Virus record (IMG/VR): IMGVR_UViG_3300029288_000082
Coordinates: 97,120-161,119 of that record
Strand: one strand, 5' to 3'
Length of the DNA: 64,000 nucleotides
DNA from: a virus
Lineage: Duplodnaviria; Caudoviricetes
A program made the translations under genes and the position numbers. Positions 5,959-62,930 of the stretch are shown one piece after another (position 1 is the stretch's first letter; each line of letters starts with the position of its first letter). The notes under the pieces were generated by a model that saw nothing but the letters and a program-made list of their open reading frames with translations, did not search any database and was not told the DNA's origin.

Positions 5959-6051
5959 AGTCTACGCATGATCTGCGCACGCGGTCAACCATCCGGCCCC
6001 AAAAAAGTGCAGGCATAGGGTTGACAAACGCAATGGAGGCATTATTATAGT
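5959..6051. promoter_or_regulatory. Divergent sigma70-like promoter pair
   Basis: Minus strand: TTGACC-18-TAGACT (5988-5959). Plus strand: TTGACA (6021-6026) followed by TATTAT/TATAGT (6043-6051). Confidence 0.65.
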
Positions 6052-6096
6052 CCCAAGATGCCGGGCGCTAAGCCCAGGCCAACCGAGGAGGATCCA

Positions 6097-6234
6097 ATGA
6101 AGATCGAACGCATCCGACGCCGGGTCATGCAGATCACCTACGACGGCCGCTCCCCGGAGATGGAGGCCCGGGCCAGCGCGCTCGCGCTCGCGCTGGGCGC
6201 GCGCGGCTACACCGTGACGCTGGTGAAAGCGTAG
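6097..6234 (+). CDS. Small hypothetical protein (45 aa; not in the ORF track)
   Basis: GAGGAGG RBS; MKIERIRRRVMQITYDGRSPEMEARASALALALGARGYTVTLVKA*; first gene after the plus-strand promoter. Confidence 0.65.
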   Translation: MKIERIRRRVMQITYDGRSPEMEARASALALALGARGYTVTLVKA

Positions 6235-6311
6235 GGAACTGGACGCGCACACGTGTGCGCATGATCGTGCCCACAACGGTGCCACGCACCGTTCAACCAG
6301 GAGGAGAAGCC

Positions 6312-7100
6312 ATGAACGAGACCGAGACCCCCAAGACGATCGACGGGCTGATCGTGGAGCTGCAGGAGGCCGAGGAGCGCCGCGACGACGCCCTGGCCGA
6401 CTACGGCCGCGTGCTCCAGGAGAAGCTGGCGCTGGAGGCGACCTGCGAGACCCTGCAGGTGCTCGTGGCCTCCGCCGAGGGGGCCGCCACGGGGTACAAG
6501 GCCGCGGTCGCCGACCTCGCGGCCCGGCTCCAGCTGGCCGAGGCCGAGCGCGACGCGCGCGCCCTGGACGAGGAGTGGCGGGCCAAGCGCATCGAGATCC
6601 AGAAGCTCCGCGACAAGTGCGAGCAGATGCGCAAGAACCTGATCGCCGTGGACGCCCGGGCGGACGAGCGGTACGAGGCGCGCGTCGTCGAGATCTGCGC
6701 CGAGCGCGACCGGGCCATCGCCGCCGCCCAGGCCGACGCAGCTGCCCAGATCGCCACCGCGGAGGCCGGCGTCGCGGAGCGCATCGCCACGATCCGGGCC
6801 GAGGCCGCCCAGACCATCACCGAGCGCTGCGCCCAGTCCGATGCCGCCGCGCGGCTGGCCACGGTCGCGCACGGGGAGGCCGACGCCCGGGCCGCCGCCG
6901 CCACGCAGCGGGCCGAGATCGCGGAGCGCAACCTGGCCATGGTCCGCCAGGCCAACGTCCACCGGGTCGATGCCCTTCGGGACGCGGTGGCCCTGACGTT
7001 CGCCTGGGAGCGGCGCGACACGCGAAAGGTCAAGTCGGCGGACGACCTGATGCAGCAGCTCCAGAAGACGCTGTACCAGGCGATCGCCGTGGCGCGGTAG
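6312..7100 (+). CDS. Long coiled-coil protein
   Basis: GGAGGAG RBS before MNETETPK; Ala/Glu/Arg heptad-rich; strong GC3 codon bias. Confidence 0.75.
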   Translation: MNETETPKTIDGLIVELQEAEERRDDALADYGRVLQEKLALEATCETLQVLVASAEGAATGYKAAVADLAARLQLAEAERDARALDEEWRAKRIEIQKLRDKCEQMRKNLIAVDARADERYEARVVEICAERDRAIAAAQADAAAQIATAEAGVAERIATIRAEAAQTITERCAQSDAAARLATVAHGEADARAAAATQRAEIAERNLAMVRQANVHRVDALRDAVALTFAWERRDTRKVKSADDLMQQLQKTLYQAIAVAR

Positions 7101-49660: not shown

Positions 49661-51271
49661 CTACCCGGAATCGCGGGCCTTTTTCTGCACCCGAGCGCGG
49701 TACGCTGCGGCATCTGCGACGCTACAGCACGCCCGGCAGGCGCCGGACAGGCCATCCCGGGCCCGGGCCCGCCGGGCAAACGCGGCCAGGGGCAGCACGG
49801 CGCCGCACCGGCAGCACTGCTTCCGGCCCTCCGCGGCGTACGGGTTCTCCTTGCGCAGGGCCAGCTTGGGCTTGCTGCCCCCGATGTGCCCCCCCAGGGC
49901 CTCGCACACGTACACGCCCCCGTTCCGGGCCAGGTTGCGCGCGTACGTCCGCGGCAGCACCACGTGGTCCACCCCGCAGTAGGGACAGAACACCGTCACC
50001 GAGGCCGCCTGCTCCTTGGCGTAGTGCCGGTCCCGGATGGCCTTCCGCTGCGCCTTGGCCCGGTCCTCGTAGGTATGATCGTCTTGCTGGGTGGCCAAAT
50101 ATCGATGGGCCCACGCTATGACCCGAGCATCCTTTCCGAGAGCGCTATCACGCTCCGTCCACACCCGCAGAGGCACACCTCGCGCGATCGCGTAGGCAGT
50201 TGAATCCGCCAGCTGATCCTTGACGTCCGGCTCATCCAATCGCGAGAACGGCTTGACCTCCCAGATCTCCTCGTGGCCATCCGAAAAAGTCACCAGGAGA
50301 TCTGGGTTGCGCCAGCGACCGTCCGCTGCCTGGAACGTCTCGCAACGCCGCACCGCGGCCACGAGCGGATCCTGGTCCAACTCGAACAGGCAACGCAGCT
50401 CGTAGGATGATCCGAAATAAACCGCGCCGCCTCCCTTGGCAGTGGGAAACACCCCACGCACATGAGCGTGCCTGTACACGCCATCCGCGTGCATCTGAGC
50501 AGTGGACGCCGACCGACGTGCTCGACGCTGGTCCCGCACCTCTGTGTTCAGGCAGTAGATCCAGCACACCTTCCCAGCGTCGTACACCCTCGTCAACCCG
50601 CGCTCCTGCGCCCACTCCCACTCCGTGAGGTCCGCCGGACACCCCGTGTGGCTCTTGCGCTGGCTCTGCTTCGAGACACGGCGGCCGTCCCGCACGTAGA
50701 AATAGTCGGGCCGGTAGGTCTTGTGCCGCGCGAACCCAATCCGCTCATACACGGCACCGGGCGTAAGGCGGTTGTCGCTGTAGCTCACGATATCGTCGTA
50801 CTGGCGCTCCCGAGCCCAGGCCACCGCAGCCGAGAACAGCCGGGACGCGCCGCCCACCACCTGCACCCCGGGCGCGAAGCACAGCCGATCCAGCACGATC
50901 CAGTTCTGCGAGATCTGTCGCGGGTGGCGCCCAAGGGACAACACGCCAACCAGATCCTCCCCATGGAACAGGCCGAACCGCACCAGGGCCAGCCGGTTGC
51001 TACCCTGCACATGACAGCGATCCAGGAATGGGGTGGCTTGCGCCCGTGGAATCTCCCGCACCGCGCAAGCCCGAGCCCCTACCCGTCTCTCGAACAGGCC
51101 AGCGCGGGCCTGCACAAAGGCTTCACACTGCGGCCTCCGACGCTCCCATTCATCTGAGAACAGAAACACCTGATCGGGCTCCCCAGCTAACCCATGTGCC
51201 AGTCTCGACAGCACCGATGCATCCCCAAGGTCAATCACCGCCACCATGATTTTTCCCACCTTGAATTCCAT
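49661..51271 (-). CDS. Free-standing homing-endonuclease-like protein (GNAT/Hef-like domain, TnsA-like PD-(D/E)XK nuclease, Zn fingers)
   Basis: FLDRCHVQG...VVGGASRL...SYSDNR...G.VYERIGF; F.SSYEL...NPDLLV...IWEVKP; lies directly after the MCP. Confidence 0.7.
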   Translation of the reverse strand: MEFKVGKIMVAVIDLGDASVLSRLAHGLAGEPDQVFLFSDEWERRRPQCEAFVQARAGLFERRVGARACAVREIPRAQATPFLDRCHVQGSNRLALVRFGLFHGEDLVGVLSLGRHPRQISQNWIVLDRLCFAPGVQVVGGASRLFSAAVAWARERQYDDIVSYSDNRLTPGAVYERIGFARHKTYRPDYFYVRDGRRVSKQSQRKSHTGCPADLTEWEWAQERGLTRVYDAGKVCWIYCLNTEVRDQRRARRSASTAQMHADGVYRHAHVRGVFPTAKGGGAVYFGSSYELRCLFELDQDPLVAAVRRCETFQAADGRWRNPDLLVTFSDGHEEIWEVKPFSRLDEPDVKDQLADSTAYAIARGVPLRVWTERDSALGKDARVIAWAHRYLATQQDDHTYEDRAKAQRKAIRDRHYAKEQAASVTVFCPYCGVDHVVLPRTYARNLARNGGVYVCEALGGHIGGSKPKLALRKENPYAAEGRKQCCRCGAVLPLAAFARRARARDGLSGACRACCSVADAAAYRARVQKKARDSG

Positions 51272-51364
51272 GCCGGAATGGTAACCAAACAATGAAACAA
51301 AAGCAAGGGGGGAGATAGCGCGGCCCTGTTTGGGGCCGCACCAATGGAAATGTAGAGGGGGAAG

Positions 51365-53030: not shown

Positions 53031-54674
53031 TTAGTCGGTCAGGCCGGCCAGCCGCTGCATCTCCTCGTAGGAGTTGCCGAAGGGATCCTTGTCCCCTCGG
53101 GTGCTGCTAGACCCGCGCCGTCCCTCGGACAGTTCCCGCTGGTCGCCGTGGCCGCGCTGCAGCCGCCGGCGCATCTCCCGCAGGTCCTCGTCCAACATGT
53201 CCGTCCGTCCGTACCGCGTCACGACCGCATCAACCTCGGCCTTGGAGGAGACGTCCTCCATCAGGCCCAACACCTCTCTACCGTTCGCCAATTGTGCTAC
53301 CTTCGCCGCCTTGTAGGCGTCCAGGGCCTCGGCCCGCAGAGCGTCCACCCGGGCTTCAAACCGGGTGCGCTCCTCGGCCAAGGTCTGCTCCGCCTGCTCG
53401 GCCTGGGCCTGCGCCTCCTCCAGGGAGGACAGCATGCCACGGCTCAACTCAGCTGCCTTGCCCAACCGCGCGTCCAACGATGCTACCTTTTCCTGCAGGG
53501 ACGACATCTCGCCCCGCAGCGTCGTGTTCTCTTCCAGGAGCCGCTGCTCTGCCGCCGACGGCCCCGGCGCCGGTAGCCGCTCATGCAGGAGCGCCAGCCG
53601 CTGCTCGACGTCCTGCTCCGACGTGAACTGCACGCCCTCCAGCAGGGCGCGGGCGGCCTCCGCCGTCTCCCCCTGCCCCAGCTGCCGCTCCACCAGCAGC
53701 TGCAGCCGAACCTGCTGCGCCTCGGCCACCGCCGCGTCCCGCGCCGCCTCGGCCTCGGTGCGCGCCAGCGTCTCGGCCTTCATGGCATCCCGCACCGCCC
53801 GCTCGTCGGGCTGGGTACGATAAGCGCCCACCATCTCCGCGATCTGCGCCAGGGTGGCCCGGGCCGCGCCCACCGATGGGTCGGCCGCGTACTCCTCGCG
53901 CAGCTGCTGCCCCAGGTCCTCCCGCGCCTCCAGCAGCGCCGCCGCCAGGCGTTCCTCGAACGCCTCCGTCATCTCCGTGCGAACACGTGTGCGCTCGGCC
54001 TCCACCGCCGCGTCCACGCCGGCCACGACCTTCTCCTTGGCCTTGGCCACGGCGTCCGCCGCCGCCTGCTCCTGGAGCTGCTGCGCCACCTCGGGGAACT
54101 CCGCCAGGAACTGCTCGGCCAGCGTGGCCGGATCCGCCTCCTCCACCGACTCCATGGTGATGGTGGGCACGGCCGTGCGCACCGCCGGGTCCGCCACGAA
54201 GTCGTAGGTCCGCAGCACGAAGTCGTCCTGGACCTCCTCGCCCTCCACCTTGCCAGACGAAGGGCGCGTGCTGCCGAAGCCCCGGCTGGACACCGGCACC
54301 GGGATCCGCGCCTCCACCAGCGCCCGCAGGTCGCGGCCCGTCGTGGTGTTCAGTATCTCCGCCTCGCCCATCACCCGCCCGTCCGCCTCCAGCCACAGAT
54401 CCGTGATCACGTGGCTCACCAGGGACAGCGAAGATTTCCCGCTCTGCGGATGGTCGAGCTGTCCGAGCACGCGCCGGTTCTCCAGGTCTTCCTTCAGCCG
54501 CTTGATCTCCCGCTCCATCAGCTTGGTGCTGTAGATTCGGCCGTTCAACGTCGGCGTATCGCAGCGCCCGAACTCTCCGCGCGCCACCAGCTTGCCGGAC
54601 CCAGGGGCGCCACGTGCCTCGGTCAACTCGAACACCGATGGCGCCGTGGTCTCGATCAGCAACTGCTTCGACAT
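53031..54674 (-). CDS. Prohead protease (gp21-like) fused to a coiled-coil scaffold
   Basis: NGRIY, LGQLDHP, VSSRGFGS and YDFVADP catalytic motifs, then a long Ala/Glu coiled coil; RBS before MSKQLLIE. Confidence 0.9.
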   Translation of the reverse strand: MSKQLLIETTAPSVFELTEARGAPGSGKLVARGEFGRCDTPTLNGRIYSTKLMEREIKRLKEDLENRRVLGQLDHPQSGKSSLSLVSHVITDLWLEADGRVMGEAEILNTTTGRDLRALVEARIPVPVSSRGFGSTRPSSGKVEGEEVQDDFVLRTYDFVADPAVRTAVPTITMESVEEADPATLAEQFLAEFPEVAQQLQEQAAADAVAKAKEKVVAGVDAAVEAERTRVRTEMTEAFEERLAAALLEAREDLGQQLREEYAADPSVGAARATLAQIAEMVGAYRTQPDERAVRDAMKAETLARTEAEAARDAAVAEAQQVRLQLLVERQLGQGETAEAARALLEGVQFTSEQDVEQRLALLHERLPAPGPSAAEQRLLEENTTLRGEMSSLQEKVASLDARLGKAAELSRGMLSSLEEAQAQAEQAEQTLAEERTRFEARVDALRAEALDAYKAAKVAQLANGREVLGLMEDVSSKAEVDAVVTRYGRTDMLDEDLREMRRRLQRGHGDQRELSEGRRGSSSTRGDKDPFGNSYEEMQRLAGLTD

Positions 54675-54917
54675 GGCTTCTTCCTCGCTCATTGGTGCGG
54701 GCCCCGTCGGCTCACCACTGCTTCCACCGCTTGAATTGGAGGCCGGTGCGGGCGATGGGATTTCGATCTGTCTTGCGCTTGGCAGCGGACGAGACGCGGC
54801 GCCCCGTTTTGTTGCCATCAGGCCGGACAGCTTGCTGTGCCCCATCGAGCCCACTCAGCTCCCGCCTCCCGGACGGATACGCCGTCCTGCGCTTGCGCCC
54901 CTCGTCAGCGAGGGGCC

Positions 54918-56885: not shown

Positions 56886-59627
56886 TCACCTCGTGCGCGG
56901 CGCTCCACGCCGCAGCCGCTTGGCGACGCCATCTACGGCGCCGCCCGTTCGCTCCACCGCCCGCAGCAGACGCCCCTCCATCTGCCGCACCTCCTGCAAC
57001 GCCTTGTCCAACCGAGGATCCACGCCCTCCGCTGGCGCCCCACCAGCACCACCCATACCAGGAGATCCACCCATCATCTCGCCGCCCGTCGTAGGCGCCC
57101 CCAAGGCCAAGGCGCCCTCGGGCCCCAGCTCGGGGAACCGTTGCATGATATCAGCCTGCACCGATGCTTGCGCCAGCGCCTGCGCCTCCGCCTCGTTGGC
57201 TTTGGCCTCGGACGCGAACAGCGCGTCCTCGTCGCTCAGGTGGAAGATGTTGGCCATGATCCATGGCGACGTGAAGAACGGCTGCAACGCCGCGGCCAGC
57301 GCGGCCCGCGCGTTCCACACCTCCACCTGCTGCATCTCGAAGATGGCGCTGGGCGCGCTCATCTGAAGCGCCCACTTCACGCTGTCCGGGTCGATGTTCA
57401 GCGCCGCAAGGTGCACCCGCACCACCTGATTGAGCCCCGCGATCCACTCGCGCTGCACTCTTTCAATCAGGCGAGAGAAAGCAACGTCCTCTTGAGTCAA
57501 GGCGCTCCGGTTCGTCACCTCAGTGCCGCCCAAGTACTGCGGCGGAATCCGCAATCCGCCATACAGCTTCTTGAGGAAGTACTCCATGACGCCGGTCTCG
57601 TCGTAGTCGGGACCAGCCAGCGGCTCAATGCGCGTGCTCTCCTTGCCCCCGCGCGTCGGGACAAAGAAATCCTCGGAGTTTTTGACGAAGATCCCAGCGT
57701 CCAAGGCGAAGTTGTGCCACACGTCCACGGTGATACACCCTGTGTCCTGAGTGTCAGATAGCCACTCCACGCTGATCACCTTGTGGTTTTCCGTCGCCGC
57801 AGTGCAAAACGCCCGCCAGTCATCGTACCCGGCCTGCTGCACAAACGACCGAAGGTTGTGCACGTCAAAGATCGTGCGTTTCCTGTTCGGATTCAGTGTG
57901 CGCAGCTCTTCGAAGAGCGGAGAAGACTGCACCGCCGCAGTAGCGTCGCGCATCCGAAGCGTTGGGTTCTCTTGCACCATCCTCCGCAGCTCGGGCAGTA
58001 AACCATCTGGATACTTGATCGCGATCTTCTCCGAGCGGATGGCGTTGTCGGCCTTGTGCTTCGGACTCTGATTATACACGATGAGGTGACGCCCAGAGTT
58101 ACGCGCTCGGTTGCGTCGGGCGATCTCCCCCGGGTGATCCTTGGCCCACTTCCGCACCCGCCTGACCAGCGCACCGGCATGCCGCAATCCGTGCTCGGCC
58201 GGGCTCACTACTTCCAGGTTCTCCGGGTAATTGTTGCGCCGCCGTTCGTCTATGTGGTGCACTATCATCCCTGTCGGATCACCCAGGTATGCCTCCGCCA
58301 CTAGCCGGTGCGTCTGCCCCAACGCCTTCCACCTCTCAGTGCCGCGCTCGCGGTGATCTTGGTGCACAACGTACTCGTATCCATTGTTTGCAATGCCCCG
58401 GTAGAGCGGCATCACGGAATCGCCCGGCTCCAGGAACTGTGCCTCCTTGTATGTGCCGTTTCGAAGAAGGAACTGGTGATCAGGAGTCGCGACTACCTCT
58501 TGGCAGTTGTCCAGGGTCACGCGCACCACTTGGGCAGTGCGCCGCGTGACGCCTGCCCACGAGATCTTTCCAGGCTTCACGTGCTTTGTCTCAGGATCGA
58601 TGGAGTACACGTAGTTCTGCACCCCGGCCTCGTGATCCATGATCAAGTCGCGCAAGGTGCGAACCGTGCTGTTGAGCAACGGGATGCGTGTGTCCAAGGA
58701 AAGGCACATTTCAAGCGGGTTGAACCGGAAATCGATCTTACCAGTGGCCGGGTCGACGATCCGCTTCTTCTTGTAGCGCCGCCGCACGTCATCGACCAGC
58801 GCCTTTGCCTCGCGCGGGGGGATCTCGCCAGTGTCCACGTAGAACGCGAAGCGCCCCGGCGCCTTGGTGAGCTTCATCACCAGCGAGTTGTCCTCCAGCA
58901 TGAGGATGCGCTTCCACACCCAGCGCACAGCATCGATCATGCTGAACCCGTAGAGGGCGCGCATCTGCTTCCCGCGCATGCGCCAGTGCACCACCTCCCA
59001 CGGCTCGAAGAACACCAAGCCGCCCGCCGCCTCGCGATCTTTGATGCGCTGCAGATCCTCGCTGGTGCTGATCGGCACCGAGAACATCCCGGTCGGATCC
59101 TGCACGAAGCCCACCAGCTCGCCACGGTCGTTCACGATGCGCCGCACCGTGGGCGGCGGCAGCCAGTTCAGGCCCAACACGCCGCGATCGTTCACTACGA
59201 TCTCGGCCATTGCGTTCCCATATTTACAGAAGGTGCGCACTGCGGCCCAGAGGTCGTCTTCAATGCGGATCCGGCGATCCAGCATGTCGTTGATGATATC
59301 GCGAACGATCTTATCCTTGGAGGTAGCCCAGATCACACGGCCATGCACCGCGTCAGCCACCGTGGCGCTGTCGGCGTACACGTCGAGGGCCGCCGAGATC
59401 AGCTCCGTGTCGTCCATGTTCTCGTAGTCGGCGTACCGCAGCAACAGATCCGAGTCGACCGCGAGCATGGTGGCCAGCTGCTGGTAGGGCGCGGACAGGC
59501 CGGTGTCGAGGTTGGAGGGGAACACGCGGGGCATAGCGCCCTCGCCAGAGTTGCCGCGAGCCAGGGTGGTTACCTGCCCCGTGGTCTGCCGCCGGAAGAA
59601 CCGCGCGATGCTATCCCGCCAGCCCAT
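56886..59627 (-). CDS. Portal protein (T4 gp20-like), containing an intein
   Basis: YENMD..ELISAALDVYAD, CKYGN, VVHWR, WKRILMLED, RFAFYVDTG, EDFFVPTRGG and EDVAFSR motifs. Confidence 0.95.
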   Translation of the reverse strand: MGWRDSIARFFRRQTTGQVTTLARGNSGEGAMPRVFPSNLDTGLSAPYQQLATMLAVDSDLLLRYADYENMDDTELISAALDVYADSATVADAVHGRVIWATSKDKIVRDIINDMLDRRIRIEDDLWAAVRTFCKYGNAMAEIVVNDRGVLGLNWLPPPTVRRIVNDRGELVGFVQDPTGMFSVPISTSEDLQRIKDREAAGGLVFFEPWEVVHWRMRGKQMRALYGFSMIDAVRWVWKRILMLEDNSLVMKLTKAPGRFAFYVDTGEIPPREAKALVDDVRRRYKKKRIVDPATGKIDFRFNPLEMCLSLDTRIPLLNSTVRTLRDLIMDHEAGVQNYVYSIDPETKHVKPGKISWAGVTRRTAQVVRVTLDNCQEVVATPDHQFLLRNGTYKEAQFLEPGDSVMPLYRGIANNGYEYVVHQDHRERGTERWKALGQTHRLVAEAYLGDPTGMIVHHIDERRRNNYPENLEVVSPAEHGLRHAGALVRRVRKWAKDHPGEIARRNRARNSGRHLIVYNQSPKHKADNAIRSEKIAIKYPDGLLPELRRMVQENPTLRMRDATAAVQSSPLFEELRTLNPNRKRTIFDVHNLRSFVQQAGYDDWRAFCTAATENHKVISVEWLSDTQDTGCITVDVWHNFALDAGIFVKNSEDFFVPTRGGKESTRIEPLAGPDYDETGVMEYFLKKLYGGLRIPPQYLGGTEVTNRSALTQEDVAFSRLIERVQREWIAGLNQVVRVHLAALNIDPDSVKWALQMSAPSAIFEMQQVEVWNARAALAAALQPFFTSPWIMANIFHLSDEDALFASEAKANEAEAQALAQASVQADIMQRFPELGPEGALALGAPTTGGEMMGGSPGMGGAGGAPAEGVDPRLDKALQEVRQMEGRLLRAVERTGGAVDGVAKRLRRGAPRTR
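57678..58706 (-). mobile_element. Intein in the portal (343 aa) with in-frame HNH endonuclease
   Basis: Begins CLSLDT; block B ATPDHQFL; HNH THRLVAE...VHHID...NN.PENL; ends HNFALDAGIFVKN|S. Confidence 0.92.
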
Positions 59628-59671
59628 GAGCCCTCCACCAGCAGCAGCGAACACGTGTGCGCTTGTCGCCC

Positions 59672-62600
59672 TCAGTCATCGTCGCCCCCGAAGTAGATCG
59701 GGGCCAGCAGCTCATCGCTGCGCGTCGCCCGCGTTGCCTGCCGCACTTCGCTCACGTCCACCTGCTCCAGGGGCACCAGCGGCGTCACCCATTGGTGCTC
59801 GTGCGCCACGATCTCCCCCATGGGTGTATCAGCATCCGCTCCCCACGGCAAGCGAGCCGCCCGCTGAGATAACCCGAGGACCACACCAGCAACGCTATCA
59901 GCGCAGTCCTTGGTACTGTGACGGGTGTGGTCCACCTTGCCCTTGATCCGGTCGTACTCCAGGGCGCGCAGCTCGCCCAGCAGGATCGGGTAATTGTAGT
60001 ACTCGATGCGCCGCTCGTAGATGGCGCTCTTGAGCGCGTTGTAGCCATCCATCGAGGTATCCAGGGAGAGGATCTCAGCGTGCACGCCGTGCCGCCGCAG
60101 TTGCTGGTGCATCTCCACGTACATGTAGGTGTCCGTGGACACGCCCGCAATCGGGAAGCCATGAGCCTGCAACGCGTACACGAGGTTGCGCAGGTCCGGC
60201 AGGTAGATCTGCTCACCAGGGGGCGGACGAATTGCCAGCATGGCCTCGATGATGAAGTGGGGAGCCACGTCTTGGTAGCGGTTGCCGTCGCCGTCGCGCC
60301 GCACCACTTCAACGTACCGATCGATCCTGCCCATGCAAAATCCCGTGCTATCCCCAGAGATCGACACGTCGATGTGGACCCAGCGGGGGGCACGCGGCGC
60401 CTCCCGTGGAACCCACGCCTCCTCAGTGAAGCCGCCTGGCAGCCGACGTTCCACCGGTCTGCACAGGTACTGCCAGTCCCATCCGCCCGGGCTGCCCGAG
60501 ATCCAGGTCTCGGCGCTGAACGGATGGCGGCGATCCTTCTGCACGCAAGAATCGATGGCCTCCACCCGCTGGAAGAATGCGCTGATGGCCTGTGTGCTGA
60601 TGCCAGCGATGTCGCGCAGCGAATCCTCCAGGTTGCCCTCGAAATCATCGCGGTACTCAGCAGGCACCTCAATCACCCACGCCTCGTGCTCCTCCAGATA
60701 CTCATCGTCCAGCGCATCCACCTCCTCTGGCGACAGGATGCGGCTGCGCAAGCTACTGTGGGCGCACAGCACATGGAACACCTCCCCGCAGAAGAACTCT
60801 TCTGGGCGAGCTGACCACTGCGAGTGCTCCAGCACGTACACGTCCGGATCATCCGCCGCCTCCCGGATCTTGCGCTCAGTGAACGAGTCCACCGTAGCAG
60901 CAGACGAGGCCAGCACCACCATCCCGGGGAGGTCGCCCGCCACCCGCTGGAAGCGCGACTTGATGCGGCGCACCAACGACCGGTACACCTTCTCCACGAT
61001 ATCGAAATGGGCCGCCGTCAGCTGCTTGCCCAGTGTCTGCTGGATTTGCTGGGCGTTGCGTTTGGGAGGGAAGTTGGTATTGTGCACCACACATCCGTCA
61101 GCCACGAACGTGCGGCAGGTAGTCTCGATGCTGTAGGTCTGCTCCGGGGGAAGCAAACAAACGCTCGTCACCCGATCAAGGTGGAACTCGGGGGGTAGGT
61201 CGGCAACGCGCAAGCACTCGGGACGGCATCCCCCAAGGGCGCGACCGTCCGCATGGTCCGGACCCGCACCCGCTTCTGTCGCACTCCCTCCATGAACGCC
61301 TCCGTCACGAAGGGGCCGGTCCACACGCTCGGCAGCGGCTTCGAGTTCAGAGACAGCAGGAAAGGCATGCACCGCTCCTGGGCCCACGCCCACAGCGCCA
61401 GCACCCGCGCACGATCCCGCGCCTTGTAAAAGCTCGTCTGCGACTTCGCCTCGACCAACACTTGCACCCCGTCGTCTCGGGTCACCAGAAAATCCGGAAC
61501 CGTGAGGCGCCGCTGCCCCGCAAGCGTGTACGGGATAAACTCCAGCTGATCCTCGCCCACGACACTGCGCACCCCCGGCGTCGCACACAGGTGCAGGGCC
61601 AGGGATTGCTCGCGTGACGACCGGCATGGCACCGTCCCGCCACATGGCGACGACACATGGAACCGGTACGTCCGCGTCCGATTCTGGATCGACCGCGCAT
61701 TCCCCTCCGAAATCCGCTGCCGATCCGCATCCGTGTGCGGGTGCCCCGGCCTTCCCTTGCGCACCGCACTCATCCTTGCGCGGGCCTCTGCCGAGTGATG
61801 TTGTCCCTTCCGCGGCATCGTCTACCCTCCAGACCGTTTCGTCCCCGACCTGCACCGCAGCCGTCGGCACGTAGATCAGGGTGTCACCGCGCCGCACCAA
61901 CACCGGGTGGTCTGGAGAAAGTTCCACGGCGCGAGGCGAACACGTGTTCGCAGCTTCGAGGCGCACCAAGGGTTGCACCGAGGACGCGCGCATCCGGAAC
62001 GGCACCCAGTGCCGCTGCCCAGTTGTGTGATCCAGTGCTTCCACCAGTAATCCATCGCGCGCATCCTCTCCAGCGTCCCAAAGATCTCCGACCGACCGCA
62101 CCTCAAAAGTGGCACCGTTTTGCACAGTTAGCAAGCATTTTTTACCTACGCACTCATCACAGATAGCGGCCACGACGGCCTGCCCGATGGCCCGCTCCGC
62201 ACCATACGAACCCACCGTCACCGAGATGTTGTTGGGAAACAGAGTGTAGTCGGTGGAAAACTTGGGCGGGAACCGCGCCATGAAGTAGGGCGACAGCTTG
62301 ATCTTGTCGTCCACCGCGGTCTTGAGCACCGCCCGGCAGATCGGCAGCGACTTGCTGACCAGCATCAGCACCATCTGCGTGCCAGCCCCCACGCCGAACG
62401 TGGTCTGCGGGTTCTTCAGGCAGCTCAACTCGTACAGCAGTCGGCAAAAAATTACACTGGCAACAAACGTCTTTCCATATCCGAGGCTGCCTGCCAGTAA
62501 TACCTCCCGGTACGGAGCAGAGAACAGGTTGATCAGTACATCCCGCAACTTTGGATACAGCGTGGTCATGGAGTCGCCAAGGTAGAAGGGGTCCTCTAGA

Positions 62601-62815
62601 AACTGGGCCATCGGCACCGGGATCGTGTGGTACAGCCCCTCCTCTAACTCCCGGCCCATGGCGGCCGCCACTTCTAAATCCCCCTCGACCAACAGCGCAT
62701 CGAACAGCTGCTTGGCCTCCGGGGGCAACCCCGCCAGCGAATCCTTCACCGCCCGCGTGTCGTCGCCCACCGTGCGCTCGCTGCGCCGACGCCCGTCCTT
62801 GCCCACCCGGATCAC
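59672..62815 (-). CDS. Terminase large subunit, containing an intein
   Basis: Walker A GSLGYGKT; Walker B AAICDE; coupling motif LASS; nuclease VHIDVS..GD and KVDH...TKDCAD. Confidence 0.93.
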   Translation of the reverse strand: MIRVGKDGRRRSERTVGDDTRAVKDSLAGLPPEAKQLFDALLVEGDLEVAAAMGRELEEGLYHTIPVPMAQFLEDPFYLGDSMTTLYPKLRDVLINLFSAPYREVLLAGSLGYGKTFVASVIFCRLLYELSCLKNPQTTFGVGAGTQMVLMLVSKSLPICRAVLKTAVDDKIKLSPYFMARFPPKFSTDYTLFPNNISVTVGSYGAERAIGQAVVAAICDECVGKKCLLTVQNGATFEVRSVGDLWDAGEDARDGLLVEALDHTTGQRHWVPFRMRASSVQPLVRLEAANTCSPRAVELSPDHPVLVRRGDTLIYVPTAAVQVGDETVWRVDDAAEGTTSLGRGPRKDECGAQGKAGAPAHGCGSAADFGGECAVDPESDADVPVPCVVAMWRDGAMPVVTRAIPGPAPVCDAGGAQCRGRGSAGVYPVHACGAAAPHGSGFSGDPRRRGASVGRGEVADELLQGAGSCAGAGAVGVGPGAVHAFPAVSELEAAAERVDRPLRDGGVHGGSATEAGAGPDHADGRALGGCRPECLRVADLPPEFHLDRVTSVCLLPPEQTYSIETTCRTFVADGCVVHNTNFPPKRNAQQIQQTLGKQLTAAHFDIVEKVYRSLVRRIKSRFQRVAGDLPGMVVLASSAATVDSFTERKIREAADDPDVYVLEHSQWSARPEEFFCGEVFHVLCAHSSLRSRILSPEEVDALDDEYLEEHEAWVIEVPAEYRDDFEGNLEDSLRDIAGISTQAISAFFQRVEAIDSCVQKDRRHPFSAETWISGSPGGWDWQYLCRPVERRLPGGFTEEAWVPREAPRAPRWVHIDVSISGDSTGFCMGRIDRYVEVVRRDGDGNRYQDVAPHFIIEAMLAIRPPPGEQIYLPDLRNLVYALQAHGFPIAGVSTDTYMYVEMHQQLRRHGVHAEILSLDTSMDGYNALKSAIYERRIEYYNYPILLGELRALEYDRIKGKVDHTRHSTKDCADSVAGVVLGLSQRAARLPWGADADTPMGEIVAHEHQWVTPLVPLEQVDVSEVRQATRATRSDELLAPIYFGGDDD
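61079..62152 (-). mobile_element. Intein in TerL (358 aa), inserted directly after Walker B DE
   Basis: Begins CVGKKC; block B LSPDHPVL; ends TYSIE...FVADGCVVHN|T. Confidence 0.9.
61168..61818 (-). CDS. NUMOD3 plus TnsA-like PD-(D/E)XK endonuclease, nested out of frame in the TerL intein
   Basis: GGAGG-7nt-ATG; KGQHHSAEARARMS..RKG (NUMOD3); RSSRE, IPY, PDFLV and LVEAK motifs. Confidence 0.85.
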   Translation of the reverse strand: MPRKGQHHSAEARARMSAVRKGRPGHPHTDADRQRISEGNARSIQNRTRTYRFHVSSPCGGTVPCRSSREQSLALHLCATPGVRSVVGEDQLEFIPYTLAGQRRLTVPDFLVTRDDGVQVLVEAKSQTSFYKARDRARVLALWAWAQERCMPFLLSLNSKPLPSVWTGPFVTEAFMEGVRQKRVRVRTMRTVAPLGDAVPSACALPTYPPSSTLIG

Positions 62816-62930
62816 GGCGCCCCCCCAGCACCAAGGGGGGAACCCAGCGCACACGTGTTCGCTCTAAAGACCGAACGATCGCCGGTCGTCTCCTGCGGAT
62901 TTTTCGCAGTTTTCTGTGAATCGTTCGGCA

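Follow-up and report, generated by a model that had tools for sequence, protein, structure and literature searches.

How can an intein keep a homing endonuclease when its own reading frame holds no recognisable one? This question is raised by the large terminase gene (terL) in a 64,000-nucleotide stretch of tailed-phage DNA (Duplodnaviria; Caudoviricetes; IMG/VR record IMGVR_UViG_3300029288_000082, positions 97,120 to 161,119), here called the window, in which an intein interrupts the terminase directly after its Walker B motif. The original prediction, made from the letters alone, placed this intein at 61079-62152 and, on the same DNA in the +1 frame, an open reading frame (ORF) at 61818-61168 with a GGAGG 7 nt before its ATG and the product motifs RSSRE, IPY, PDFLV and LVEAK. 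All of these coordinates and motifs proved correct, and the intein frame is open from end to end as had been claimed, the terL ORF (59672-62854) containing no stop. Our comparative analysis indicates that the locus is very probably a terL intein with an overprinted, independently started homing-nuclease gene in the +1 frame of its linker.

A separate nuclease gene nested in the terL intein

The nested ORF runs from ATG 61818-61816 to TGA 61170-61168 and sits exactly between the two structured splicing regions of the intein (Table 1), and a TAG at 61824-61822 closes its frame two codons upstream of the ATG. In this phage of 64-67% guanine plus cytosine (GC), the codon-position pattern GC3 > GC1 > GC2 follows the terL frame until about 61850, the nested frame from about 61800 to 61250, and the terL frame again beyond that.

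A word-indexed search turned up four relatives of the nested protein, and searches for similar loci among viral contigs added more. The layout recurs in no fewer than 14 distinct sequences (the window, L002, L006-L012, L039, L055, L070, L072 and L083), ranging from 35% to 69% GC and with nuclease identities to the window of 41% and below at the lower end. The more distant L083 and the short contig L082 have the same nesting, L082 with an intein-like host frame around its +1-frame nuclease. Wherever the frame was checked, the nuclease is in the +1 register relative to terL and at one and the same extein site, and the cases with DNA (L002, L006-L012, L039, L055-57, L070 and L072) read DE/C...VVHN/TNF in a long ORF. 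The nuclease ORF, on the same strand and out of frame, takes up the endonuclease region of the intein with the host frame running through it uninterrupted.

The start of the nested gene is kept as well. Among nine loci, the Shine-Dalgarno (SD) sequence is GGAGG in seven and GGGGG or GAGG in the rest, at a spacing of 5-8 nt, and it persists where the overlapping intein residues differ (WR versus VE). The context of SD and ATG followed by M(A/P)KKG..SEE recurs across these loci, and a stop closes the nested frame 1-32 codons upstream of the ATG in all nine.

Some members of the group are more elaborate. In L010 (3635-5065), which shares its contig with L026, the nuclease core occurs twice in tandem within a nested gene of 477 codons, and the intein of L055-L057 (2172-5000) spans 943 codons with two nuclease matches; the host frame is open across the whole of both duplicated-nuclease inteins. 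Several terL genes carry multiple inteins, including those of L007, L009, L010 and L011 and above all L083 (1265-6634), which has at least four: one at the P-loop with a LAGLIDADG-like region, the Walker B intein that bears the overprinted nuclease, another containing an HNH-like region and a fourth at the end of the contig. A further FVADGVVVHN at residue 281 of L011 points to an intein of the same type at an additional site. For L002 (5019-8579), public gene calls list the nuclease (6001-7083) and a 513-residue 3' part of terL, and miss the 5' third of the gene.

Selection on the two reading frames

Across the nested gene, the terL frame contains no stop in any of the nine loci, against 5-33 stops in the third frame. 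Synonymous codons were permuted within each nested gene in 20,000 shuffles, with the protein and its codon usage held. The shuffled genes carried on average 3-25 host-frame stops, and the host frame remained open in 2.1% of shuffles for the window, in 0.3-0.4% for L002 and L007, and in 0 of 20,000 for each of the other six loci (P <5e-5).

The bias behind this result takes the form of a simple rule. A host-frame stop in the +1 register needs an NNT codon followed by a codon beginning with AA, AG or GA, and a synonymous NNT-to-NNC change therefore removes every such stop. In eleven genes, codons ending in T made up none of 1008 nested codons before AA/AG/GA codons, compared with 490 of 2563 (19%) elsewhere (Fisher p 2e-77). 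To judge from the genetic code, this avoidance should cost the nuclease nothing, NNT and NNC being always synonymous. The original prediction had supposed that high GC at third codon positions eases an open shadow frame, an idea that did not hold: L012, at 38% GC, obeys the rule with 38% T at third positions elsewhere, and because the layout persists there, at 35-38% GC, by avoidance of T-ending codons, the openness of the shadow frame cannot be put down to high GC3.

Pairwise nucleotide diversity, calculated on a codon alignment of eight nuclease cores, was 0.39, 0.30 and 0.575 at nested positions 1, 2 and 3. Nested position 3 is position 1 of the intein frame, and it is the most variable position in the shadow linker. 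Counted in the intein frame, the corresponding values were 0.41/0.36/0.61 in the N-terminal splicing region and 0.34/0.27/0.62 in the C-terminal one. Since the diversity peak follows the nested frame in mid-intein and the intein frame at both ends, purifying selection at the protein level switches frames at both boundaries. Conservation among the homologues is not confined to the intein frame, the nested frame being constrained in mid-intein, as the original prediction would have it. On this sequence comparison both frames are maintained by selection, for the nuclease protein in one and for the absence of stops in the other. The linker is constrained to stay stop-free and is not conserved as a protein.

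Folds of the nuclease and the intein

The assignment of the nested product to NUMOD3 and TnsA-like nucleases draws on its family. Pfam TnsA-like N (PF08722) matches six of the eleven family members at E<0.01 (best 8.8e-7), NUMOD3 matches ten of the eleven (best E 9.2e-34), and the family profile matches the DNA-binding domain of I-TevI (1i3j) through its NUMOD3 part. Among the catalytic residues, E70 is nearly invariant and D109, E123 and K125 are invariant (E...D...ExK). An AlphaFold2 (AF2) model of the nested protein, based on an 11-sequence alignment, had a mean predicted local distance difference test score (pLDDT) of 83 and exceeded 90 in the core; residues 196-216, with pLDDT below 50, are its sole disordered part and overlap the start of the C-terminal splicing region. 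The top Foldseek matches were TnsA of Tn7 (1t0f and 1f1z; E 1e-5 to 8e-5, root-mean-square deviation 3.1-3.6 A over about 130 columns), followed by the PD-(D/E)XK nucleases Bax1, Hjc and BstEII. The modelled protein combines a restriction-endonuclease-like fold with the E...D...(D/E)xK residues, in agreement with the nuclease type named in the original prediction.

The intein begins with a Cys codon (62152-62150) right after Walker B AICDE, its opening residues being CVGKKCLL, and ends with an Asn codon (61081-61079; FVADGCVVHN) before the Thr of TNFPP. Cys1, the block B His (SPDHP), the C-terminal HN and the extein Thr are invariant in 12 aligned inteins, and the invariant columns of the N-terminal splicing region are C1, DH and HP. 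The intein has the nucleophile, block B His, His-Asn end and Thr as first C-extein residue of a class 1 intein. In an AF2 model drawing on 12 sequences, including three mini-inteins, residues 1-112 and 311-358 reached pLDDT 79-96, the beta-rich N-terminal region alone 84-94, and residues 113-310 about 30, with secondary structure absent. This linker holds 40 Gly and 38 Ala among its 198 residues. In the C-terminal splicing region, roughly the first 18 codons are shared with the disordered end of the nuclease ORF. Foldseek ranked inteins at places 1-28, among them RadA, the TFIIB mini-intein and PI-PfuI, and then a few Hint domains of the hedgehog and bacterial intein-like kinds, with probability 1.00. 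Structure prediction of both frames gave a folded nuclease in one and a Hint fold with a disordered linker in the other, as expected if the original prediction is right. Given the essential host gene, the conserved catalytic residues and the open host frame, the intein would be removed by protein splicing.

Empty sites, mini-inteins and mobility

The alleles surveyed were 55 related terL genes, 54 from viral contigs plus the window. An exact DE/TNF junction without insertion was present in 37 of them, an intein with the +1 nuclease in 14, and a nuclease-less mini-intein of 180-190 residues, without the shadow linker, at the same site in four. The intein is a precise in-frame insertion that is absent from the 37 empty orthologues, including L013. 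On the C-extein tree, the intein state changed 13 times, at least eight of these changes being forced by well-supported branches, a total close to the mean of 14.8 obtained with shuffled labels.

Close pairs of filled and empty alleles show what surrounds the insertion. The flanks of L037 (empty) and L040 (filled) are 97.3% identical, with nine mismatches within 50 nt upstream of the site and three in the next 890 nt; those near the site fall mostly on third codon positions and are bunched at -1, -4, -7, -10, -16, -18 and -24. The pair L022 and L024 has the same mismatch series from -1 to -16. Such bunching resembles the short co-conversion tract that homing may leave. One of the mini-inteins, L025, derives from an L010-like intein by an in-frame deletion inside the nuclease gene. 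The SD, the ATG and about 30 codons at the 3' end of that gene are retained, and the flanks of L025 are 99% identical.

Origin and wider nuclease family

A profile search of 1.84 billion representative proteins recovered 12 close clusters of 106-470 residues and about 140 distant relatives, and none of the 12 close clusters was fused in frame into a long protein. Among ten distant relatives that were scanned, eight passed the Pfam TnsA-like N cut-off (42-62 bits), and two carried NUMOD3 as well. Free-standing members occur in the wider family: the close relative P0012, judged like P0003 and P0005 from gene maps, sits between small genes in a 70-kb phage-like contig, and gp26 of Bacillus phage Moonbeam (KM236246.1) is a free-standing NUMOD3 'endonuclease'. 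A scan of the genome contigs with the nuclease alignment revealed no relative.

In the distant subgroup P0017/P0027 the nuclease is again overprinted in the +1 register, here of a very different intein, and in L083 that intein occupies the same Walker B site of TerL, which argues that the overprinted arrangement is old. The link between the two nuclease subfamilies comes solely from the family-profile search (E about 1e-8). L083 itself was found with a three-sequence alignment, broader alignments of the distant TnsA-like relatives being too diverse for locus searches.

The original prediction held that a free-standing endonuclease gene had invaded a mini-intein. This is plausible, since free-standing relatives and mini-inteins at the same site both exist, but the only mini-intein with a readable history (L025) is a deletion derivative of a nuclease-bearing intein, and the invasion remains a matter of inference.

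Proposed mechanism and alternative explanations

Given the observed architecture, conservation, per-frame selection, folds and empty sites, we infer a chain of internal translation, splicing, specific cleavage and homing. When ribosomes translate terL, the linker would yield a disordered peptide rich in Gly and Ala, which splicing would remove along with the intein; ribosomes starting at the internal ATG would make the nuclease. The enzyme would most likely cut intein-less terL near the GAC GAG/ACN AAC junction, and repair could then copy the whole element into the cut allele. The sporadic distribution of the element and the site-adjacent mismatches in two filled/empty pairs are consistent with site-specific cleavage of the empty allele. 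The core of the original prediction, a separate overprinted gene in a contiguous intein whose shadow peptide would leave with the intein, is supported by sequence comparison, by statistics and by the structural models.

Several results weigh against this interpretation. The window nuclease itself falls short of the curated cut-offs, both for Pfam TnsA-like N (E 6.6e-5; 23.8 bits, cut-off 26.5) and for NUMOD3 (PF07460; 19.0 bits, cut-off 20.4). The intein is below the NCBIfam cut-offs of TIGR01445 (E 0.14; 13.1 bits, cut-off 24.5) and TIGR01443 (14.5 bits, cut-off 15.6), and a Pfam scan of the intein, including the intein-frame peptide, found no match, which for the middle region is what the original prediction had said of it; because curated intein hidden Markov models miss it, the intein must be regarded as divergent. 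The scattered distribution of the intein cannot by itself separate gain from loss. Furthermore, L043 and L045/L047 differ by a nuclease-less mini-intein of 184 codons in otherwise identical flanks (no mismatch in 550 nt upstream, four downstream), and the presence of an intein can therefore change without a resident nuclease; such a mini-intein must either have been lost precisely or have been mobilised by a nuclease acting in trans. In approximately unbiased (AU) tests of nuclease against extein trees, the extein data did not reject the grouping of the window, L007 and L002 (p 0.137); the nuclease data rejected that of the window, L007 and L008 (p 0.019), a grouping picked after the trees were seen.

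Could the nested ORF be a working nuclease that does not drive homing, and instead excludes or degrades co-infecting phage DNA or serves host takeover while sheltering in a neutral intein site? TnsA-like N domains are common in non-homing settings such as transposases and restriction enzymes, the same phage has a second TnsA-like domain elsewhere, and a nuclease-less mini-intein also varies between identical alleles. We nonetheless think such a role improbable, as the nuclease keeps to a single extein site even between deeply diverged relatives, NUMOD3 repeats are a usual component of homing endonucleases in phages (I-TevI, for example), and the element is sporadically distributed with flanking mismatches bunched at its insertion site. 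Synthesis of the nuclease as a fusion, through programmed +1 frameshifting of ribosomes out of the terL/intein frame, would fit the start of the nested gene exactly at the end of the N-terminal splicing region and the help that the splicing domain of canonical inteins gives to endonuclease DNA binding. Such frameshifting is very unlikely in view of the TAG two codons before the ATG in the window and of the upstream stop, SD and ATG in all nine loci; a conserved slippery motif was not noticed, no search being aimed at one, and a shifted ribosome would end at the nested stop and leave a dead-end terL fragment.

A decaying endonuclease that was once in frame and lost its register through two compensating indels, the intein frame being open only by chance, would gain some credit from the window itself, where stop-free shadow frames are commoner at 64-67% GC and 2.1% of shuffles are open. 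Offset, start and stop are the same in 14 or more diverged sequences, including one of 35-38% GC, the nested frame is under purifying selection with its catalytic residues intact, no in-frame version exists among the 1.84 billion representatives, and avoidance of host-frame stops goes far beyond chance, so that this explanation is effectively refuted and barely deserves credence. A sequencing or assembly error in the contig has nothing in its favour except the general prior for metagenome assemblies; since the layout recurs across diverged relatives, in independent assemblies from many samples, an artefact and a private pair of indels are ruled out with near certainty.

With the overprinted homing-nuclease gene kept as the preferred explanation, our results also raise, tentatively, the possibility that +1 overprinting is a stable end state and not a passing intermediate toward an in-frame endonuclease or a split intein. 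In this joint reading, which we consider possible but less likely than not, overprinting would be costless to the nuclease because synonymous NNT-to-NNC changes clear every host stop, and stability would follow from that. The layout has lasted through divergence from 35% to 69% GC and through two nuclease subfamilies. An SD and ATG of its own would moreover let the nuclease precede the late, highly expressed terL and cut co-infecting genomes early.

The host gene and its genomic setting

The interrupted gene contains the ATPase motifs GSLGYGKT (Walker A) and VVAAICDE (Walker B), and alignment with relatives suggests that its true start is probably a GTG near 62815. Scanned directly, the exteins of the window gene had zero matches in Pfam or PHROGs, and sequence-profile searches of the PDB with the C-extein and with a full intein-less TerL returned no terminase among their matches. 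Because the direct scans of Pfam, PHROGs and NCBIfam gave nothing usable, the identity of the gene was taken from intein-less orthologues and from tblastn. Two such orthologues match phrog_2 'terminase large subunit' (L013, E 6.6e-10; L064, E 3.6e-10), L013 being 81% identical to the window over the first 200 residues of the C-extein, and the C-extein is 32-34% identical to GenBank phage genes annotated 'terminase large subunit' (E down to 4e-59). The profile match of the orthologues, the ATPase motifs and the portal neighbour mark the product as a large terminase (TerL).

Table 1. Positions of the terL intein, its nested nuclease gene and neighbouring features in the window
Feature	Position	Strand	Remarks
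terL (large terminase) precursor ORF	59672-62854	minus	1060 codons, no internal stop
Intein	61079-62152	minus	358 codons, between Walker B DE and TNF; boundaries identical in all relatives (DE/C...VVHN/TNF)
N-terminal splicing region	61817-62152	minus	Intein residues 1-112; Cys1 and block B SPDHPVLV
Shadow-frame linker	61223-61816	minus	Intein residues 113-310; G/A/V/P-rich, stop-free
C-terminal splicing region	61079-61222	minus	Intein residues 311-358; ends VVHN
Shine-Dalgarno GGAGG of nested gene	61826-61830	minus	7 nt before ATG
Nested gene	61168-61818	minus	216 amino acids, two NUMOD3 repeats and TnsA-like PD-(D/E)XK nuclease; +1 frame of terL
T4-type portal gene with canonical intein	56886-59654	minus	Pfam Portal_T4 4.7e-49
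Prohead protease ORF	53031-54854	minus	607 codons; Peptidase_S77 match confined to residues 89-225
ORF with Mom-family/GNAT region	49661-51292	minus	543 codons; Mom-family/GNAT region 77-257 and TnsA-like endonuclease N domain 330-380 (E 6.7e-5), single frame

Directly downstream of terL lies the T4-type portal gene, the intein of which matches Pfam Intein_splicing (1.5e-11, residues 325-659) and carries HNH_3 in frame within that region (3.1e-11, residues 448-489), as the original prediction had noted of the gene next door. Because this portal intein is canonical, with its HNH in frame, neighbouring packaging genes, both essential, contain inteins that differ in endonuclease layout.

The window is the last 64 kb (C2:97120-161119) of a contig, C2, of 161,119 bases and 66.4% GC, in a bin that averages 60.6% GC, with 56-63% in the other large contigs. 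The contig has one tRNA-Pro and no terminal overlap, and the gene content of the window includes T4-like sheath, gp23, gp21 and gp20; the contig is probably a T4-like phage genome co-binned with a bacterial metagenome-assembled genome. No paralogue of the nested nuclease was found elsewhere in the bin at E<0.001, and the similarity of the nested nuclease to the TnsA-like domain of ORF 49661-51292 is marginal (E 0.016). This ORF may represent a further mobile nuclease, joined to a DNA-modification gene by fusion or placed inside it, and the part of the prohead protease ORF outside its peptidase match could be a scaffold fusion or another insert.

Implications

The terL element adds a fourth nuclease class, NUMOD3 plus TnsA-like PD-(D/E)XK, to the inteins with an overprinted separate homing endonuclease gene. 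With empty alleles, mini-inteins, a deletion derivative and tandem nucleases at one terL site, together with free-standing relatives, the family is exceptionally rich in information. The avoidance of NNT before AA/AG/GA offers a simple way to measure selection acting on a frame that has no meaning otherwise. Gene callers split or miss such terL genes and profile searches fail on the interrupted protein, and annotation pipelines for phage metagenomes would benefit from knowing the overprinted-intein pattern. The mini-intein and the nuclease, if active, could also serve as splicing and cleavage tools.

Comparison with known systems

The original prediction suspected that alternate-frame intein endonucleases might have been noted in other phages, and this is the case. 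A Brucella phage terL with an out-of-frame endonuclease was noted in 2015 (PMC4422536). As in the window, a different frame of the central part of terL encodes the endonuclease, a likeness at the level of the host gene; the Brucella phage enzyme has an HNH domain and a zinc ribbon, whereas the one described here has NUMOD3 repeats and a TnsA-like domain, and that paper contains no analysis of selection, frames or empty sites, all three of which were analysed here. Non-canonical inteins of actinobacteriophages, many of them in terL, likewise have the endonuclease in another frame or on the other strand of a contiguous intein (Gosselin, Arsenault, Gogarten, bioRxiv 10.1101/2025.01.02.630785), and those authors propose invasion by a free-standing endonuclease and ongoing transfer. 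Their same-strand case is an endonuclease VII-like gene in frame 3, unlike the +1-frame TnsA-like enzyme of these T4-like environmental phages, and their antisense cases are LAGLIDADG or VSR-like (PD-(D/E)XK-type), with NUMOD3 and TnsA unmentioned.

Out-of-frame endonucleases extend beyond terL, to a hidden HNH in a methylase insert (Arsenault et al. 2025) and, in a 2026 preprint, to a cyanobacterial dnaX intein (Phillips et al.). The preprint describes, as here, a sporadic element, a per-frame selection analysis and a proposed secondary invasion of a mini-intein; its host is a cellular gene, in contrast to phage terL.

For the nuclease itself, TnsA of Tn7 (1f1z, 1t0f; PF08722) is the best structural match of the core and shares the E...D...ExK arrangement at 16-17% identity, but it is a transposase subunit with a C-terminal TnsC-binding domain, which the nested nuclease lacks, having N-terminal NUMOD3 repeats. 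Moonbeam gp26 has the same two-part NUMOD3 and TnsA-like design (29% identity over 128 residues) and lies between genes, outside any intein, unlike the nested nuclease. No cultured phage in the GenBank collection carries a close homologue of the nested nuclease, and in the literature searched we found no paper linking TnsA-like or NUMOD3 nucleases to inteins, or TnsA-like enzymes to homing.

In the 'fractured genes' of phages, a split intein has a free-standing endonuclease gene between its halves (Dassa et al. 2009, PMC2677866). These resemble the present locus in placing a phage endonuclease gene, in some cases of PD-(D/E)XK type (Vsr-like), at the endonuclease insertion point of an intein; they include one terminase case, and the 3' end of the endonuclease gene overlaps the downstream intein part by 6-69 bp. 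There the host is broken into two genes joined by trans-splicing, whereas here the host frame continues across the nuclease gene, and with terL stop-free in 9/9 loci this is neither a fractured gene nor a split intein. The out-of-frame layout of an intein endonuclease has been known since 2015; what is new at the terL site is the class of the nuclease and the frame register in which it is read.

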